Below, in pieces: positions 10,146 through 62,800 of a stretch of 64,000 nucleotides of DNA (position 1 is the first letter of the stretch; each line of letters starts with the position of its first letter). The DNA comes from a virus (taxonomy: Duplodnaviria > Heunggongvirae > Uroviricota > Caudoviricetes). Made by a program: the position numbers and the translations under genes. The notes below the pieces were generated by a model. The model searched no databases. It was not told where the DNA came from and was given only the letters and a program-made list of their open reading frames with translations. The DNA lies in the IMG/VR virus record IMGVR_UViG_2713896905_000004, positions 31,599-95,598 of that record. The stretch is one strand, 5' to 3'.

Positions 10146-10997
10146 ATGATAAATTATGTCTACGGCGAACAACTGTACCAGGAGTTCGTCAGCTTCAGGG
10201 ATCTCTTTCTAAAAAAAGCTGTTGCACGCGCCCAACACGTTGATACAGCCAGCGACGGTCGTCCTGTACGCCCGGTTGTCGTTCTACCGTTCAAAGAAAC
10301 TGACAGCATTCAGGCTGAAATTGATAAATGGACTTTAATGGCGCGGGAACTGGAACAGTACCCAGACCTCAATATCCCAAAGACTATTTTATATCCAGTG
10401 CCTAACATCCTTCGCGGTGTGCGTAAGGTTACAACTTATCAGACAGAGGCTGTGAACAGCGTCAACATGACCGCTGGCCGCATTATTCATCTGATTGATA
10501 AGGACATTCGCATCCAAAAAAGCGCGGGGATCAATGAGCACAGTGCGAAATACATAGAGAACCTGGAAGCAACAAAAGAGCTAATGAAGCAGTACCCGGA
10601 GGATGAAAAATTCCGTATGCGCGTACACGGCTTTAGCGAAACAATGCTGCGCGTCCACTACATTTCCAGTAGCCCTAACTACAATGATGGTAAATCAGTT
10701 AGTTACCATGTGCCACTGTGTGGCGTGTTTATCTGCGATGAAACTCTCCGTGATGGAATTATCATCAACGGTGAATTCGAAAAAGCAAAATTTAGCCTTT
10801 ATGACTCCATAGAACCGATCATCTGCGACCGCTGGCCGCAAGCAAAAATATATCGCCTGGCAGATATTGAAAATGTAAAAAAACAAATTGCCATCACTCG
10901 CGAAGAGAAAAAGGTTAAGTCAGCCGCATCAGTTACGCGCAGCCGTAAAACCAAGAAGGGGCAGCCAGTAAACGACAACCCCGAAAGCGCGCAATAA
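10146..10997 (+). CDS. c1: C1 repressor of lysis
   Basis: 283-aa protein recognised as P1 C1; its operator is found throughout the window. Confidence 0.85.
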   Translation: MINYVYGEQLYQEFVSFRDLFLKKAVARAQHVDTASDGRPVRPVVVLPFKETDSIQAEIDKWTLMARELEQYPDLNIPKTILYPVPNILRGVRKVTTYQTEAVNSVNMTAGRIIHLIDKDIRIQKSAGINEHSAKYIENLEATKELMKQYPEDEKFRMRVHGFSETMLRVHYISSSPNYNDGKSVSYHVPLCGVFICDETLRDGIIINGEFEKAKFSLYDSIEPIICDRWPQAKIYRLADIENVKKQIAITREEKKVKSAASVTRSRKTKKGQPVNDNPESAQ

Positions 10998-11000
10998 ATT

Positions 11001-11022
11001 ATGCCCGGCATCAACCGGGCAT
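11001..11022. terminator. hairpin between convergent c1 and ant-like genes
   Basis: atgcccggcatcaaccgggcat. Confidence 0.35.
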
Positions 11023-11029
11023 TCTTCCA

Positions 11030-12148
11030 TTATTCAGCCGCCACCGGTTTTAACAAGCCAGCATCGAGCAGTTTACGCGTCAACCACTGCTGGCCTTTAC
11101 CCGTTAATTGAGGCGTCAACCGTATCTGGTAGCCATCTTCATCATCCAGCACCACTTCTTTCACCGTGAAATACCCCGCGTTGATGTACTGCTGGAACGG
11201 CACATTTTTACGTCCACCGGACGCTATCAGGATGCCGTTCTCCCGTAACCAGACAAACAGCGCGTTTTGCTTAAGTCCAACAACCTTTGCAAAATTCCCA
11301 ATCAGGATCCCTTTAGCTACTGATACCCGGTCGGCAAAATCGACCTTAGGAGCGGCGGCCACCAGCTGCTGATTTAGCTGGTGGGCTTTCTGTTCCAGAA
11401 GCTGCTTTTGTTCAGCCAGTTCGGCAGCCAGGCGTAGGGCTTCTGGTAATGTTTGGGGGATTGCAACCGGTTGCTGTTCTTTTTGCCGGAAGTAGCTGTC
11501 TTCCAGTTTTTCAAAGAATGCCCATGCCTGATCGGTTTCGAGCATTTTAGCGTGGCGGGCTGCGCCGCGTTCTGTCCAGAGGGTGAGTGAGCGAACATTG
11601 CGAGCAATTTTTACAGAGTAGTTTAAAGCTACTCTGTGCTTCAACTCGCGCAATGATTCTCCTTCAACTTTGAAAAAGTGCTTCCCTTCAACAAAGCGTA
11701 CTTTGTTCTCATGATGATTTTGGCGAATACGGATTGTTTCTGTCCCATACCCTCTAGCAAGAGTCTCGGTTGTCACTACACGCACTCCCTGCCATTCCAG
11801 AACGGGAATTTCATCAGACTGATTCTGAACAACCACCAGCTCCGATTCCTGAACTGAAGGTGCATGAATTTTTTCTGATTTAACGTTAGTTGCTTTCATT
11901 CTGTGTGCCTCCTTGCGTGCTTCGGCTGCGACGGTTGCGTAATTCAGATGACCCTGTTCGAGCAGGTATTCGCGGATATCAGACAACAGGATACGGTGAA
12001 CCGCGTTCTTGTCCTTTCTCCGGTAAAGTTGTTTGGTGATCATGAAGTAGTTGGCAATAACGCCTGGTATATCCCTGGTACTGATACAGGCAGTGTGCTG
12101 TTCAATTGCCTCGATCATCTCTTCACGGGTAACTAACGATGTTCTCAT
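11030..12148 (-). CDS. Ant-like antirepressor paralog
   Basis: C-terminal ~190 aa nearly identical to the 469-aa Ant at 60843-62252 and to the KilA C-terminus; N-terminus about 60-75 percent identical to Ant. Confidence 0.75.
   Translation of the reverse strand: MRTSLVTREEMIEAIEQHTACISTRDIPGVIANYFMITKQLYRRKDKNAVHRILLSDIREYLLEQGHLNYATVAAEARKEAHRMKATNVKSEKIHAPSVQESELVVVQNQSDEIPVLEWQGVRVVTTETLARGYGTETIRIRQNHHENKVRFVEGKHFFKVEGESLRELKHRVALNYSVKIARNVRSLTLWTERGAARHAKMLETDQAWAFFEKLEDSYFRQKEQQPVAIPQTLPEALRLAAELAEQKQLLEQKAHQLNQQLVAAAPKVDFADRVSVAKGILIGNFAKVVGLKQNALFVWLRENGILIASGGRKNVPFQQYINAGYFTVKEVVLDDEDGYQIRLTPQLTGKGQQWLTRKLLDAGLLKPVAAE
11040..11600. repeat. long dispersed repeat, copy 1 (roughly 90 percent identical to 60855-61400)
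   Basis: By-eye alignment of the 3' portions of the two ant-like genes. Confidence 0.7.
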
Positions 12149-12366
12149 AGTCCCTCCTGAGCAGAAGCGTTAACAGGGAGGCACCAGTAACTGAGAGAAT
12201 TGCGTGAATCAGTGGAAAAACGGGCAGAGAAAATACATGGGGCGTCAGGAAGCTGAGAGCGGGCCTCATCTTCTGTTGGTGCAATAACGAAGTGATAGTG
12301 ACGTTTTTGGCAGGAGTAAAAGCGCCAGATAAATTCAGGATGAGTTGGGGTAGGGATAGTAGCCAT
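12145..12366 (-). CDS. Icd-like small protein, paralog of 62249-62470
   Basis: 73 aa MATIPTPTHPEFIWRFYSCQKRHYHFVIAPTEDEARSQLPD...; AAGGAGG ribosome-binding site; stop overlaps the ant-like start. Confidence 0.65.
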   Translation of the reverse strand: MATIPTPTHPEFIWRFYSCQKRHYHFVIAPTEDEARSQLPDAPCIFSARFSTDSRNSLSYWCLPVNASAQEGL

Positions 12367-12685
12367 ATTGGCAGCCTCCTTAGACGTTGGTATGTAACCA
12401 CCGCAGAAGAGACCAATCTTGCTGGCGGTGGACTGTACGGAGTTGGCCTTACTGGCGTCCAAGGTAACCAGCCTACCCGAAGGTAGCCCCATACAGCCCA
12501 CCATTGTAGAGGTGTGCGTGTACGCCGATACAAAAAAAGACGCGAGCGGCGTCTGTATCGCCTTAGACTTAAGCGGGAGGCCAATCCCGGCACCCGTTTT
12601 AATGAGGTGCCTGATAAGCATAAACCGAAAATGCCTCAAGGCGCAAGAGGTCAGGTTCAATGTAACATCGGTAGTTAAAAAACAC

Positions 12686-12702
12686 AATTCATTAGAGCAA
12701 AT
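12686..12702 (-). promoter_or_regulatory. C1 operator-like site upstream of the second icd/ant module
   Basis: Minus-strand atttgctctaatgaatt, about 13 of 17 matches to consensus. Confidence 0.4.
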
Positions 12703-12704
12703 GT

Positions 12705-14189
12705 TCATTCATTAAGCCATGCCAGAGCTTCATCAACCTGCGCTTCGTCTTCGACGCTAAGCACTTCATCCTGGGGAACATAATCCGCCAGCATAGCGAA
12801 ACAATATGTATCCCAATGGTCTGGTGAGTGCAGGTTGAGTTTTTTCTTCATATCCTCCTTACTCATCACCTTCCATTGACCTGCGGAGTTAATCCCTACA
12901 GGGATTTTCGACGCTTCCTCAATAGTTTCATTACCCTTATCCAGTCTCATACGACCAGATTTTACGGCCTCTGCGGCTTGAACATTGGCATAAGCACGTT
13001 TATCAAAGTACAGGCTCTTATCTTCACGGCTATGCATCTTTTTACCCCAGCGTATACGCTGTACGGTAATACCATAATACTCGTACATCAGATCCGCCGT
13101 TGCTTTACCCAGGCCATCGCCGTCTATCGCTATGGTGATATTGGGGAATCGCTCAGGATTACATTCTGCGAAAATTTTGGCGGCAAGCTGCGTTTCTGTA
13201 ACGTCTGTGTATTCCAGCATTCGATAGTTGATTACACGGCGTTTATTTCGCTGGCCGGACACCATCATGATATTGATAACGGACTTATCCCGTCCTGTAC
13301 CACCAGCAACGTCCACACATGCAAGCCAGCCCCATCCTTTGGCAATCTTGACTTTCCGCCGCGTCGCACGTTCAACCTCATCACGTCCAAGAAGGAAGCC
13401 ATCCTGTGATTTAGGGAATAGTCCGCGTACCTTAATCATGTACATAGGGTTATCACGCCCGCCGTACTCCGCCAGCTTCATTTTGATAAATGCTGGAGTT
13501 ACCAGCGGTGATTCCTCACTGTTAAGCGTGATCGCCGTATAAACGCCATCAGGGTTACCAGGACGCTTGGCCAGTTTATGGTGAGTATCGTAGAAATAGC
13601 CGCTTGGGCGTGTAGGCTGTGACAGTAATAAGATGCGGTTATCCTGTCCGGTAAGAGCACCGGTGATGATACCGAAAGCTCTATCACTGACACCGGAGGC
13701 TTCATCGATAATATACAGAAGATGATCTGCGTGTTCACCGGCGAGAGCTTCTTCACTTCCCAGACGAAAGCCCTTCGGTACTACAGTCCATACACCTTTA
13801 CCAGTAACCTCATAGAAAGCGGTTTCTGTCAGAACAAAATAATCAGCAAGCCATGGAAAACGGCTGGTGGCAGTAGCCCAGTTTATCTTGATGTACTTGA
13901 ATATACCGGTCATTACCTGCTGAATTTTGTTCGCAACGATAATGGCGCGGGCACCGGGATACATGATTATGAACAACATGATCATGATAGAAGTCATGTC
14001 TGATTTCCCGGTACCGTGACCAGACGAAACAGATGTCTTGCTACCCTGTTCCTGCACAGACTCAATAATCAGATCCTGCTGCCAGGTAGGTGTTTTGCCG
14101 AACAAAACATCAGCGGCAGCAATCCAGTCATAACGATATAGCGCCACCAGCTCGCGCCAACGTGGATCCGTTACGCAACTTCTGGCCAT
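12705..14189 (-). CDS. pacB: terminase large subunit PacB
   Basis: 494 aa; ATPase-like motifs; follows pacA. Confidence 0.8.
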
Positions 14190-15382
14190 TAATCATCATC
14201 CCCGTATAGCTTGCGGGTAACTTCTTCATCTTCCTCCTCGTCTTCGTCCAGGTCTTGTTCCAGCCATGGGTCGTTTGATACACCTTCAGTATCAACATCT
14301 CCATAACCGCCTGTATCAACGATATCGGCGATTTCTTCCCTACGCTGCTCAATCCACAATGCGGCATCGGCGCGGCGGTTGGCGGCCCGTTCTCGCGCAA
14401 CTTTGTCCAGATCTTCAAGAGAAGGGCCACCGACGGCTGTTTGCCTTTCCTCATCATCGGTATTGGTCTTAGGAGCACGCAGATCGGCTTTGATTTGCTC
14501 CAGCATCAGGGGCGGCACTTTTCCGCCATGCGCCTCGATGAATTCAGCTGCTTCCAGCACTGACCAGTTATTTTCACGCTTTCGTTCGTATGCCAGCTTA
14601 ACAATGCCAGCTTGCCCCATAGATAAAGCGTGCTTTTCCGCCTCCCGGCTTTCTTTTCGATAGTTATTCCGGATGCTGTAAATGGTGTTGATCAGGCTGC
14701 TTATCTGCGCGGAACAGCTGTTTAGCATGCTCGCGATACGATATTCAGGCGGAGTCCCTTCATCATCGTCTTTTTGCTGATCGCGCATTTCCTGCACCAG
14801 ACGAATACACGTATCCCTGGCGTTCTCCAGCATAAGGAGATGAGAAAGAGACTTTTCCAGAAGAGTGGTTTCCAGAACATCGGCCCCGGACCGACGCAAC
14901 ATAGCGCGCGCGGCCTTCCGCGCTTCAACGTTATCTATCAGGTAATCGCCAGCTTCGAATTCAAAGCGTTCACCATCATCATCCAGGGTGTCGCGTTCCA
15001 GGCGATCACGTAAGGTCCGGTGGGCGCGGGTGATCACGTCATGATCATCAGAACGATCATTTATGCGCTTATTCTGGCGCTTCGCGTTCTCGACTGCGGC
15101 ACTGACAACAGCATTAACTCTTTGTTTTTCAGCCATTTCAGCCACAATGTGATCACCTGCACGTTGATCATTAGCGTGATCAATGATCATGCTTTTTAGT
15201 GGTTTTCTGACAGGCTTATTTGGCTTACGGCTGTCCGCTGTTCCGGTGTCTTCTTTGAATGCACGGAGATAACGACGTGCGGTGTTTGGGTTGAGATTAA
15301 ACTCGGCGGCATATTGTGCGATGGTGTAACCACCATCTCGCGCCAGGCGAGCAAAATTCTTCTTGTGATCGTCCCAGGTCAC
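14189..15382 (-). CDS. pacA: terminase small subunit PacA (contains pac site)
   Basis: 397 aa; N-terminal helix-turn-helix; embedded GATC-hexamer pac site. Confidence 0.8.
15030..15192. other. pac packaging site
   Basis: Two clusters of TGATCA/G hexamers (3 + 4 GATC) about 100 bp apart inside pacA. Confidence 0.7.
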
Positions 15383-57891: not shown

Positions 57892-58524
57892 ATGTTTGTG
57901 CCTGTACTGTTAAAGGGGGACTCTAAAATGGCTGTGATTCCAATGTCGTACTCCCCGGGTACTGTCGCTCGTCGATTTTCGATCCTGGACGGAGTTACCA
58001 TCCAGGGTGTGCTTTACCAGGTTATATGGGATTCCAAAACCCCATTTGCAGCTGTAATAGAGGCTGCGCCTTCTGTTATCGATGGTGATATGCGCCATAA
58101 GGTTGTCGCTACTCTTGAACTTCAACGTCGCCCGCAGCTTGAAGGCGTACTGGTAAGGAAGTTCTGGGAGGATAGCGATGTTGCCCAGATTGAAGGTATC
58201 GTGGTTGATGGAACCGTCCGGGATGTCGGTTTAGCTACTTTTGTTTACGAAACCGTAGCCTCAAAAGCTGGTGTTGTTTTGCTCAGTGATAATGAGCAAT
58301 ACGAAGGTGGAAAAGCTCTTTGGCAACACATCGCCCGTCGCTCTTCCGAGCTAAAAGTGTTTATCCTCGACACCGATGCCGCTCAGTATTACCCGTTTGA
58401 CGGCGAACGTGTTTGCTATGACGGGGTAAGTATTCCTGAATCCGAGATATGGAGTGAACACCCAGATCGAAGTAAGCATGGGGTTGTTCTGGTCGCTGAA
58501 TCCATAATTGGAAAGGCGGCATAG
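57892..58524 (+). CDS. hypothetical protein behind an AT-rich leader
   Basis: 210-aa ORF (possible internal start at MAVIPMSY). Confidence 0.45.
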   Translation: MFVPVLLKGDSKMAVIPMSYSPGTVARRFSILDGVTIQGVLYQVIWDSKTPFAAVIEAAPSVIDGDMRHKVVATLELQRRPQLEGVLVRKFWEDSDVAQIEGIVVDGTVRDVGLATFVYETVASKAGVVLLSDNEQYEGGKALWQHIARRSSELKVFILDTDAAQYYPFDGERVCYDGVSIPESEIWSEHPDRSKHGVVLVAESIIGKAA

Positions 58525-58706
58525 CAGTAAAAAATTCCTTGCTCCTAAAAAGGGGAGAGGGCTAATCTACGTATGCTAAGCATAGATATGGCCTCAGATT
58601 AATGTTAAGCGTCTTGCAGGACGCGTAATGTTATCTGGGGCTTTCTTCTATCTGCTTGTCGGGTAATGCCTGAAGCAGATAGCCTCAAGCACCCGCAGCG
58701 ATTGTA

Positions 58707-60842: not shown

Positions 60843-62252
60843 TTAACCTATTGCTACTGGTTTTAACAAACCAGCATCAAGTAGCTTGCGAGTTAACCAC
60901 TGCTGGCCTTTACCCGTTAATTGGGGCGTCAGCCGTATCTGGTAGCCATTTTCATCATCCAGCACCACTTCTTTCACCGTGAAATACCCGGCGTTAATGT
61001 ACTGCTGGCGCGGTACGTTTTTGCGCGCACCAAAAGCCATGAGAATGCCGTTCTGGCGCAACCATGAGAAAAGGGCGTTTTGCTTAAGTCCAACGACCTT
61101 TGCAAAGTTCCCGATCAGGATTCCATTAGCCGCTGATACCCGGTCGGCAAAATCGACTTTAGGGGCTGCGGCCACCAGCTGCTGATTTAGCTGGTGGGTT
61201 TTCTGTTCCAGTAGCTGCTTTTGTTCAGCCAGCTCGGCAGCCAGGCGCAGAGCTTCGGGAAGCGTCTGGGGGATTGCGACCGGTTGCTGTTCTTTTTGCC
61301 GGAAGTAGCTGTCTTCCAGTTTTTCAAAGAATGCCCACGCTTGCTCTGTGTCTACGATCTTAGACATGCGTGCCGCTCCGCGTTCGGTCCAGAGTATTAA
61401 GGATCTGGTCTTGGGGGAAATTTGCAACTCGCTAAAAGATAGTCGCAAACTTTTTATCTCATCTCCTTTGATTTTAAAGAAGTGTTTACCCTCTACAAAT
61501 CGTTCTTCATTGCGATTGTAGTTCTGCTGAATACGAGTAGGTGTAGTGCCATACCCTCTAGCAAGAGTCTCGGTTGTCACGACGCGTACTCCCTGCCATT
61601 CCAGAACGGGAATTTCATCAGGATGATTTTCAACATTTATAGGTTCCAATGCCTGAATCATGGTATGTAGCGAACGGCGGACCGCTTTTGACTCGCGCGC
61701 GGCAACGCGCAGGGCTTGTTTGTAGGTCATGGTTATGACAACCATAGGCGTACCGCCACCTGGCGGCACGGTTGCACTTTTTGTGTAACCGTCCTCACCT
61801 TCTAATTCGTCGAGTATTTTTTCGATGAATTTGTTGTTCCGAACGTCTGGTTCCCCACATAACTTACGCGCTTCATTGACCATCTTTAACAGTGTCTGGC
61901 TGTCGATTGTGTCTCCGGTGTTGGGGATGATATTCACGGCTGGTGCTGGCGTAGCTGAAGCAACAGGTGCTGGTTTTTCAACATTTAAATTATTACCGGT
62001 CATTCTATGTGCCTCCTTTCTCATTTCTGCTGCCACTGTTGCGTAACGTAGACGTCCTTGTTCAATCAAATAATCCCTGATCTCGGCTATCAGTAGCTTG
62101 TTGATCACAGCCTTATCTGTTCGGGTATAAAAACGTCTGGTTATCATGAAATAGTTGGCAATTGCGCCGGGGATCTCCCGTGTCGGCATACAGGCAGTAT
62201 GCAGGGCGATCGCTTCGGCTATGTCATTACGGGTGACGAGAGGTTTTTTCAT
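60843..62252 (-). CDS. ant1: antirepressor Ant
   Basis: 469 aa; preceded by the icd-like ORF and a C1 operator. Confidence 0.8.
   Translation of the reverse strand: MKKPLVTRNDIAEAIALHTACMPTREIPGAIANYFMITRRFYTRTDKAVINKLLIAEIRDYLIEQGRLRYATVAAEMRKEAHRMTGNNLNVEKPAPVASATPAPAVNIIPNTGDTIDSQTLLKMVNEARKLCGEPDVRNNKFIEKILDELEGEDGYTKSATVPPGGGTPMVVITMTYKQALRVAARESKAVRRSLHTMIQALEPINVENHPDEIPVLEWQGVRVVTTETLARGYGTTPTRIQQNYNRNEERFVEGKHFFKIKGDEIKSLRLSFSELQISPKTRSLILWTERGAARMSKIVDTEQAWAFFEKLEDSYFRQKEQQPVAIPQTLPEALRLAAELAEQKQLLEQKTHQLNQQLVAAAPKVDFADRVSAANGILIGNFAKVVGLKQNALFSWLRQNGILMAFGARKNVPRQQYINAGYFTVKEVVLDDENGYQIRLTPQLTGKGQQWLTRKLLDAGLLKPVAIG
60855..61400. repeat. long dispersed repeat, copy 2 (pairs with 11040-11600)
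   Basis: By-eye alignment, roughly 90 percent identity. Confidence 0.7.
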
Positions 62253-62470
62253 AAACCCCCCTGAACGTCGGCAGAGAAGGGGAGGCTCCAGTAACTAAGT
62301 GAATTGCGCGAGTTAGTTGAAAAACGGGCAGTAAAAATGCAGGGGCCATCAGGCAATTGAGAGCGTGCTTCGTCTTCTGTTGCTGCGATAACGAAGTGAT
62401 AGTGGTGTTTTTTACAGGAATAGAAACGCCAGATGAATTCTTGGCGTGCGCAAGGATTGGCATTAACCAT
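62249..62470 (-). CDS. icd: Icd (interference with cell division)
   Basis: 73 aa MVNANPCARQEFIWRFYSCKKHHYHFVIAATEDEARSQLPDGPCIF...; overlaps the ant start. Confidence 0.7.
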   Translation of the reverse strand: MVNANPCARQEFIWRFYSCKKHHYHFVIAATEDEARSQLPDGPCIFTARFSTNSRNSLSYWSLPFSADVQGGL

Positions 62471-62479
62471 AGTTACGGC

Positions 62480-62760
62480 CTCGTAAGTTGATAAACAACC
62501 TGCGACCCGCTGCTAAACAGGTGGCAGGACGTGACGGGGTTAGCAGACTGGCACTTACGAAACCAGCAGGCCGAAGCCTCCCCATCACGCCCCACCATAA
62601 TTCGGGCGTAACGTGGTTTACGGACACAAAAATACCGCAATATCGGAAATCTGCGGTTGTCCGCGTAAGTATTCAGGCTGCTAAACCCGGTCGCAGAATT
62701 TGCTACGACGGCGGAACTATAAGCCTGAACGATTAAAAGGTCAATATGATGTGAAAAGAT
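62480..62760 (-). ncRNA. region expected to encode the c4-type antisense RNA and its target sites
   Basis: Non-coding leader between operator and icd; repeated ctgctaaac motifs; exact ends not determined. Confidence 0.3.
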
Positions 62761-62782
62761 AGCATTCGCGACTTAAAAATAC

Positions 62783-62800
62783 AAATTTATTAGAGCATTG
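62783..62800 (-). promoter_or_regulatory. C1 operator for the immunity operon
   Basis: aaatttattagagcattg. Confidence 0.55.

Follow-up and report, generated by a model that had tools for sequence, protein, structure and literature searches.

A probable second immI-type operon with its own C4 antisense RNA between pacB and c1 of a P1-like phage-plasmid

Anatomy of the pacB-c1 cassette

We analysed a 64,000-nucleotide stretch of viral DNA (hereinafter designated the window), which corresponds to positions 31,599 to 95,598 of IMG/VR record IMGVR_UViG_2713896905_000004. The window belongs to a P1-like phage-plasmid and carries c1 (10146-10997, plus strand), pacB (12705-14189, minus strand), pacA (14189-15382, minus strand) and the canonical immI-kilA-repL block (~59.0-62.8 kb, minus strand); its C1 protein shares 99.3% identity with P1 C1. 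The stop codons of pacB and c1 are separated by 24 bp in P1 and by 1.7 kb in the window, where the gap is filled by a 1.7-kb minus-strand cassette comprising, in order, a C1-operator-like site, an IsrK-type leader RNA, a C4-family antisense RNA, an icd-like gene, an ant1/ant2-like gene and a hairpin shared with c1. All immI parts annotated in P1 (NC_005856), namely the operator, the a1/b1 leader, c4, a2/b2, icd and ant1/ant2, have a counterpart in the cassette, that of the operator being an operator-like site. We consider it likely that this insert between pacB and c1 is a second immI-type operon, complete and functional.

A previous reading of the window from its letters alone (the sequence-only reading) had described a 73-residue icd-like open reading frame (ORF) with a strong ribosome-binding site, overlapping a 372-residue Ant-like gene, and both are present as described on the minus strand. 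The icd-like gene (12145-12366) is preceded by AAGGAGG 8 nt upstream. Icd has no Pfam model. The predicted protein passes the NCBIfam model NF033153 at 49.8 bits, above the cut-off of 25, and shares 74% identity with P1 Icd. The ratio of non-synonymous to synonymous substitution rates (dN/dS) of icd is 0.02 against the copy in phage RCS47 and 0.115 against the canonical copy in the window. The sequence-only reading had allowed that the ORF might lack conserved Icd residues; the NF033153 match and the dN/dS of 0.02 indicate that they are retained.

The start of the ant1-like gene (11030-12148, minus strand, 372 residues) overlaps the icd stop codon in an ATGA. The encoded protein contains PF10543 (ORF6N) and PF03374 (KilAC, E value 4e-31), laid out as a P1-Ant-like N-terminal region followed by ORF6N and KilAC. 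Its first 93 and last ~135 residues can be aligned with P1/P7 Ant1: the C-terminal 135 residues are 86% identical to P1 Ant1 and 91% identical to the canonical Ant of the window, and the N-terminal 93 residues are 61% identical to P1 Ant1. An in-frame internal start at Met84 (ATG 11897-11899, AAGGAGG ahead) would yield an ant2-like product (11030-11899, minus strand) and falls at the same codon as ant2 in the P1 annotation; the ATGA overlap and this internal start are both conserved. The dN/dS of ant is 0.45 against RCS47 and 0.18 against the canonical copy, and by these values both icd and ant are under purifying selection.

The cassette is headed by the sequence TTTGCTCTAATGAATTG (12685-12701, minus strand), which directly follows the pacB stop codon and agrees with the C1 operator consensus in 14 of its 17 positions, in line with the earlier proposal that the second module has an operator-like site of its own. 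The window carries 16 sites with no more than three mismatches to this consensus, compared with 0.3 expected by chance. In position and context the site is homologous to P1 Oc4/Op51, and the alignment includes a downstream T-rich stretch. It is overlapped by a putative weak promoter (TTGTGT-N17-TACATT, 12654-12687, minus strand) assigned by homology to the position of P1 P2c4/P51a. A putative leader promoter (12617-12646, minus strand), consisting of a -35 element TTGCGC (12641-12646), an 18-nt spacer and a -10 element TATGCT (12617-12622), aligns with TTGCGC/TTGACT-N18-TATATT of phage D6 and the Shiga toxin (Stx) 2 phage F039. A transcript from this promoter would start near 12610, and the Rfam isrK model begins at the same position. 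Positional homology is the basis on which both promoters are assigned.

At its other end, the cassette meets c1 in a G+C-rich hairpin (11001-11022) with a 9-bp stem, six G-C pairs and a T-rich tail, located between the convergent stop codons of ant (11030) and c1 (10997). The hairpin is probably a terminator common to both genes. It is the single hairpin separating the two converging stops, and read-through from ant would run antisense to c1.

Antisense RNAs and their target sites

The leader (12533-12610, minus strand) matches Rfam family RF01394 over model positions 1-77 of 77 with 60.8 bits (gathering score 50). It forms two hairpins followed by an intrinsic terminator, AGACGC..GCGUCU plus a run of seven U (12532-12554), and contains two target sequences, a1 (UUGGCCU, 12578-12584, minus strand) within the loop of hairpin 2 and b1 (GUCUAAGG, 12561-12568, minus strand). 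Downstream of the leader, a C4-family antisense RNA (12421-12508, core 12427-12502, minus strand) matches RF01695 at full length (1-87) with 75.9 bits (gathering score 45). It folds as in P1 (-41.6 kcal/mol, z-score -3.75) and exposes two segments, b' in a loop (CCUUGGACG, 12456-12464, minus strand) and the single-stranded a' (AGGCCAA, 12443-12449, minus strand). The RF01695 match and the fold dispel the doubt, voiced in the sequence-only reading, that this region might be unable to form a c4-like structure. Neither the C4 nor the isrK-type RNA figured in that reading; both were found by the Rfam search. The second pair of targets lies further downstream, with a2 (UUGGUCU) at 12410-12416 and b2 (CGUCUAAGG) at 12378-12386, both on the minus strand, the latter covering the icd Shine-Dalgarno sequence AAGGAGG (12375-12381).

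The canonical immI module occupies 60843-62799 on the minus strand and contains its operator (62783-62799), a c4-a1b1 motif (RF03163, 62670-62722), a C4 RNA (62517-62602), icd (62249-62470) and a 469-residue ant (60843-62252), all on that strand. The RF03163 motif has no match upstream of the cassette C4 and is found in the window only in the canonical module. The segments exposed by the canonical C4 are CUGCUAA for a' and UCGUAAGU for b'; their targets lie at 62482-62516 and 62664-62684.

Each C4 RNA is complementary to the targets of its own module. Whole-RNA duplex energies between c4 and leader proved uninformative because the c4 stem is unfolded in the calculation, and loop-only pairing was used instead. 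By this measure, the cassette C4 loops pair with their own a1, b1, a2 and b2 over 7-9 contiguous bp at all four sites, with a' and b' pairing with a2 and b2 over 7 and 9 contiguous pairs, respectively, and the canonical loops are matched by the canonical a1, b1, a2 and b2. Across modules, loops and targets match at best over 4 bp (GGCC), and continuous runs are never longer than 6 bp in either direction. The motif 'a-site, 5-35 nt, b-site' of each type occurs in the 64-kb window only in its own module, with a chance expectation of at most 0.02. These results support the suggestion of the sequence-only reading that the two modules differ in specificity. Since the cassette and canonical loops differ completely, the two modules would be regulated independently.

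The loops and their targets change together. In the copy of the insert carried by RCS47, all six segments (a1, b1, a', b', a2 and b2) are altered, giving loops CCUUUGAC / GUCUCAA and a spacer that is 21 nt longer, and every change is compensatory. Scanning IMG/VR with the Icd protein yielded 79 loci, most of them arranged pacB-cassette-c1, in which 11 loop combinations occur, with a1, b1, a2 and b2 exactly complementary in each. If P1 itself is counted, there are at least five combinations of the IsrK type and seven of the P1 type; among the P1-type c4 RNAs of these loci, at least five b' alleles are combined with two a' alleles. When 28 IsrK-type leaders (20 distinct, including those of phage D6 and an Stx2 phage) were aligned, pairs changed on both sides amounted to 5 of 7 for a'-a2, 4 of 8 for b'-b2, 5 of 7 for a1-a' and 4 of 8 for b1-b', with 100% of positions paired throughout and thus nine compensatory pairs per target set (a1/b1; a2/b2). 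The internal helices of C4 (helices 4-6), which make up a long closing stem enclosing two hairpins, are likewise 100% paired, with 11 compensatory pairs. After a shift of the partner by 1-3 columns, 30-47% of cells in the structure as a whole are paired, and none of the shuffles attains the observed score. Such co-variation of loops and targets argues for a working regulator with diversifying specificity.

The two copies in the window are related to different degrees along their length. Positions 11040-11831 and 60853-61635 are 81% identical over 793 bp; the best 550 bp of the ant 3' halves reach 85.6% identity and the best 450 bp 88.7%, so the earlier estimate of about 90% over about 550 bp was slightly too high. 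The icd gene and the 5' part of ant are 71% identical over 441 bp and the leaders of the two modules give no blastn alignment, which bears out the divergence of icd, the ant 5' regions and the leaders that had been noted. Both modules lie on the minus strand, ~49 kb apart, and the repeats are therefore direct. The sequence-only reading had seen in them a substrate for recombination or inversion; deletion or gene conversion between them is possible, and inversion is rejected for copies in this orientation. Crossing-over between direct repeats would split the genome and would not turn a segment round. Of greater relevance is gene conversion or an exchange of cassettes, of which signs are present.

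The canonical Ant has a P1-type N-terminus and middle segment and, in addition, an ORF6N segment that is missing from P1/P7 Ant1. No phage record covers this segment, and none covers more than 76% of the canonical module. The junction within the canonical ant (61480-61840) is intact in only 19 of the 481 PLSDB plasmids that match, and this ant looks like a rare chimeric allele arisen by exchange with an ant of the pacB-c1 type. Two loci in IMG/VR carry an IsrK-type leader at the canonical site. The canonical c4 itself can be assigned to neither the P1 nor the P7 type: a' CUGCUAA equals that of P7, b' UCGUAAGU differs from both P1 (UCACUAAC) and P7 (UCACAAUC), and the canonical b1 and b2 sites are altered to match it.

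Occurrence and relatives of the cassette

A 1771-bp region spanning the cassette is 99-100% identical in 62 PLSDB plasmids, is covered to at least 80% in 269 and is present in phages vB_EcoM-673R5, JL22 and RCS47. The P1 pacB-c1 junction has 703 matching records in PLSDB; 314 of these are uninterrupted and 389 are split or partly matched, consistent with an insert at this site in about half of the records. Loci in IMG/VR extend the picture to other sites: further c4-icd-ant cassettes are flanked by sequences corresponding to ~6396 and ~6956 of the window (L073, L074) and to ~36960 and ~36902 (L082, L083), both sites being empty in the window itself, and some P1-like contigs carry three cassettes. 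In one locus (L084), a cassette connects the ant-c1 flank with the flanking sequence of the 36.9-kb site; the locus represents either a recombinant between cassettes or a misassembly. In another (L055), a deletion from within pacB to just upstream of icd has removed the leader and c4 and left icd and ant in place.

The presence of the insert is already on record, the kind of element is known, and the finding reveals no new mechanism. Venturini et al. (2019; PMC6906374) reported an ant insertion between pacB and c1 in pTZ20_1P and RCS47; that paper and the corresponding records give only two short hypothetical ORFs and ant, and the RCS47 record (GenBank FO818745) annotates neither icd nor an RNA in the insert. 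The RCS47 insert is the same element at the same site, covering 92% of the region at 92.6% identity. Plasmid records annotated by the Prokaryotic Genome Annotation Pipeline (PGAP) already name both proteins. For a second c4 in P1-like plasmids, our literature search found only the remark of Venturini et al. and one on a D6-like element; it returned no description of the insert as a whole immI-type unit that has a C4 RNA and a distinct specificity of its own, or of the pacB-c1 locus as polymorphic for loop type.

The closest known counterpart is immI of P1 and P7. Its parts follow the same order, with a C4-family RNA exposing two segments, duplicated target pairs located upstream and over the icd ribosome-binding site, an overlap of the icd stop with the ant start, ant2 at codon 84, a KilAC C-terminus and an operator-like head. 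By contrast, P1/P7 immI adjoins kilA-repL while the cassette lies between pacB and c1, and the P1/P7 leader is of the c4-a1b1 type (RF03163) while that of the cassette is of the IsrK type (RF01394). The cassette loops are unrelated to those of P1/P7, the c4 stems have diverged, and the middle of Ant is ORF6N in the cassette and a P1-specific segment in P1/P7.

From the leader start to approximately icd codon 10, the cassette is ~79% identical to a region found in many Stx-converting lambdoid phages, some records of which annotate isrK and C4 there, ahead of a different regulator (a Rha-type regulator or an antirepressor). The operator region, the remainder of icd and ant are P1-like, and the combination of a Stx-phage-like leader part with a P1-like remainder makes the cassette a mosaic. 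The Stx2 and D6 versions carry other loop sequences. The orf83-orf82 locus of phage D6 resembles the cassette in having an IsrK-type leader, a C4 RNA, icd and an antirepressor; it differs in its loops (CCUUUUGC / GUCUCAA), in its Rha/Roi-like antirepressor and in backbone and insertion sites. A second c4/icd region is also present in the D6-like plasmid prophage pYU39_89 (PMC6799933), so that, as in the window, an element of the P1 supercluster can hold more than one antisense-RNA/icd unit.

Two more distant systems share parts of the design. The isrK-orf45/STnc1160-anrP locus of the Salmonella prophage Gifsy-1 (Hershko-Shalev et al. 2016, PMC4825925) has a terminated IsrK leader, a processed complementary RNA downstream and a short upstream ORF translationally coupled to the antirepressor, a layout that the cassette resembles. 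Its short ORF, unlike that of the cassette, has 45 codons and overlaps the RNA, and its antirepressor acts in a lambdoid prophage. In P4 immunity (seqA-CI RNA-seqC), a processed small RNA likewise pairs with two sites, one upstream and one downstream, and relatives of P4 CI and seqA are picked up by the Rfam C4 and isrK models (PMC10111431). Unlike the cassette, P4 has neither icd nor ant, and its CI RNA terminates transcription of replication genes.

Proposed regulatory role of the cassette

In P1, a block of icd translation stops ant through Rho-dependent polarity, C4 is excised, and Ant inactivates C1. The part that c4, icd and ant play in the heteroimmunity of P1 and P7 is established (Citron and Schuster 1990; Biere et al. 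1992; P1 annotation). For the cassette, the analysis establishes anatomy, membership in RNA and protein families, module-specific complementarity, co-variation and purifying selection. The cassette thus appears real and intact and is very probably functional, and its role is most likely that of a second lock-and-key for heteroimmunity; we infer RNA processing, repression, C1 as the target of Ant and an effect on superinfection.

As we envisage it, transcription of the cassette would begin at ~12610, with an upstream C1-operator-controlled start or read-through from pacB as further possible sources. Many transcripts would stop at the leader terminator and give a short IsrK-like RNA, while those reading through would carry the C4-family RNA, presumably excised as in P1. 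The two exposed C4 segments would base-pair with the a2 and b2 sites of transcripts of this kind and cover the icd ribosome-binding site, and the block of icd translation would turn off the translationally coupled ant1/ant2. Where the antisense RNA is absent or mismatched, Icd and Ant would be made and Ant would inactivate C1. A prophage with both modules may therefore silence incoming antirepressor genes of either specificity, and an infecting phage with both may escape any resident that lacks either antisense RNA.

Several observations weigh against assigning this role to the cassette. The operator-like site has three mismatches, and the two putative promoters are weak, neither being called by a consensus promoter scan. 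The ORF6N domain in the middle of Ant is without counterpart in P1/P7 Ant1, and the N-terminal 93 residues are only ~60% identical; given this divergence, the target of Ant could differ from C1. The leader is of the IsrK type, and short IsrK activates rather than represses the antirepressor in Gifsy-1 (PMC4825925); control of the cassette may thus follow a richer logic than that of P1. Finally, one contig (IMGVR_UViG_2698536372_000019; L012/L095) carries tandem cassettes between pacB and c1, both with the loop type of the window, implying that extra cassettes do not always bring a new specificity. The same contig disproves a rule we had considered, that co-resident cassettes always differ in type.

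The leader also raises the possibility that the cassette serves chiefly to switch on induction, as in Gifsy-1: short terminated leader RNA, accumulating under certain conditions, would pair with the C4-like RNA, or remodel the long transcript, and thereby turn on icd and ant and induce the prophage; the cassette would then provide a second, signal-responsive route to lysis rather than a superinfection device. In Gifsy-1, IsrK acts in trans to activate anrP translation and is required for stationary-phase prophage induction, and a processed RNA complementary to IsrK is present downstream of isrK (PMC4825925); Hfq binding of IsrK RNA and trans-activation by it are known only from that prophage (PMC4825925). 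The intrinsically terminated leader of the cassette, with its 60.8-bit isrK match, fits such a switch, as do its a1 and b1 sites, which are exact decoys of the C4 loops and change in step with these. The presence of a decoy leader, however, fails to discriminate between the two proposals, as P1 immI also has a1/b1 followed by a terminator-like hairpin, and hypervariable loops, of many types within a single phage lineage, fit self/non-self recognition better than a physiological sensor. We regard a predominantly inductive role as unlikely, at roughly one chance in a handful, and note that it and the P1-type model are not mutually exclusive.

Two further explanations deny the cassette any part in P1 immunity. 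It may be a passenger from lambdoid or D6-like phages that hitch-hikes at the site, with an antirepressor acting on the repressors of non-P1 prophages or on nothing. The ~79% identity of leader, C4 and first icd codons to Stx-converting phages, where they precede a Rha-type regulator or antirepressor, would agree with such an origin, as would the ORF6N domain missing from P1/P7 Ant1 and the finding that other P1-like contigs have, at pacB-c1, a loop type that phage D6 carries in identical form. Yet a C1-operator-like site heads the cassette, the N-terminal region and KilAC of its Ant are P1-Ant-like with the ant2 start conserved, icd and ant give the signal of purifying selection, the pacB-c1 junction is split or partly matched in the 389 PLSDB records mentioned above, and the loop type of the window occurs in IMG/VR only in P1-like contigs. 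A mere passenger is on this evidence improbable. An assembly artefact, or a collapsed or duplicated repeat, as the sequence-only reading had allowed for, would have nothing but the partial repeat ~49 kb away in its favor; the pacB stop-operator and ant stop-c1 stop junctions recur in sequenced phages and in hundreds of closed, independent plasmids, the near-identical copies in 62 PLSDB plasmids among them, and the two modules are only 71-86% identical, with leaders that do not align. We put the chance of an artefact close to nil.

A wider and more tentative picture may also be drawn, for which we would give somewhat less than even odds: P1-like phage-plasmids may run a multi-locus, combinatorial RNA lock-and-key, with interchangeable c4-icd-ant cassettes at immI, at pacB-c1 and at two further sites and with recognition loops reshuffled among alleles. 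Were this so, an extra cassette would serve as both shield, its RNA silencing a matching incoming ant, and sword, its ant escaping a resident without the RNA, and an element with two cassettes would be immune to more of its relatives and break the immunity of more of them. The IsrK-like leader might contribute a further level of control, with decoys that tune induction.

In E. coli and Salmonella, P1-like phage-plasmids often carry resistance genes. Immunity specificity governs which of them coexist, exclude or induce each other, and a second, independently specified cassette would alter the predicted outcomes of superinfection and induction between relatives. The co-varying loops and targets offer a simple sequence-based typing scheme for this specificity, and the cassette carries the classical c4 paradigm of P1/P7 over to a setting with multiple cassettes and multiple alleles.

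Elsewhere in the window, a sok antitoxin RNA (Rfam RF01794, 89.7 bits; 58520-58694, minus strand) adjoins repL, which suggests a hok/sok-type addiction module next to that gene. A tRNA cluster with four matches, one of them weak (41.9 bits, 41192-41275), lies at 39605-41357 on the minus strand.

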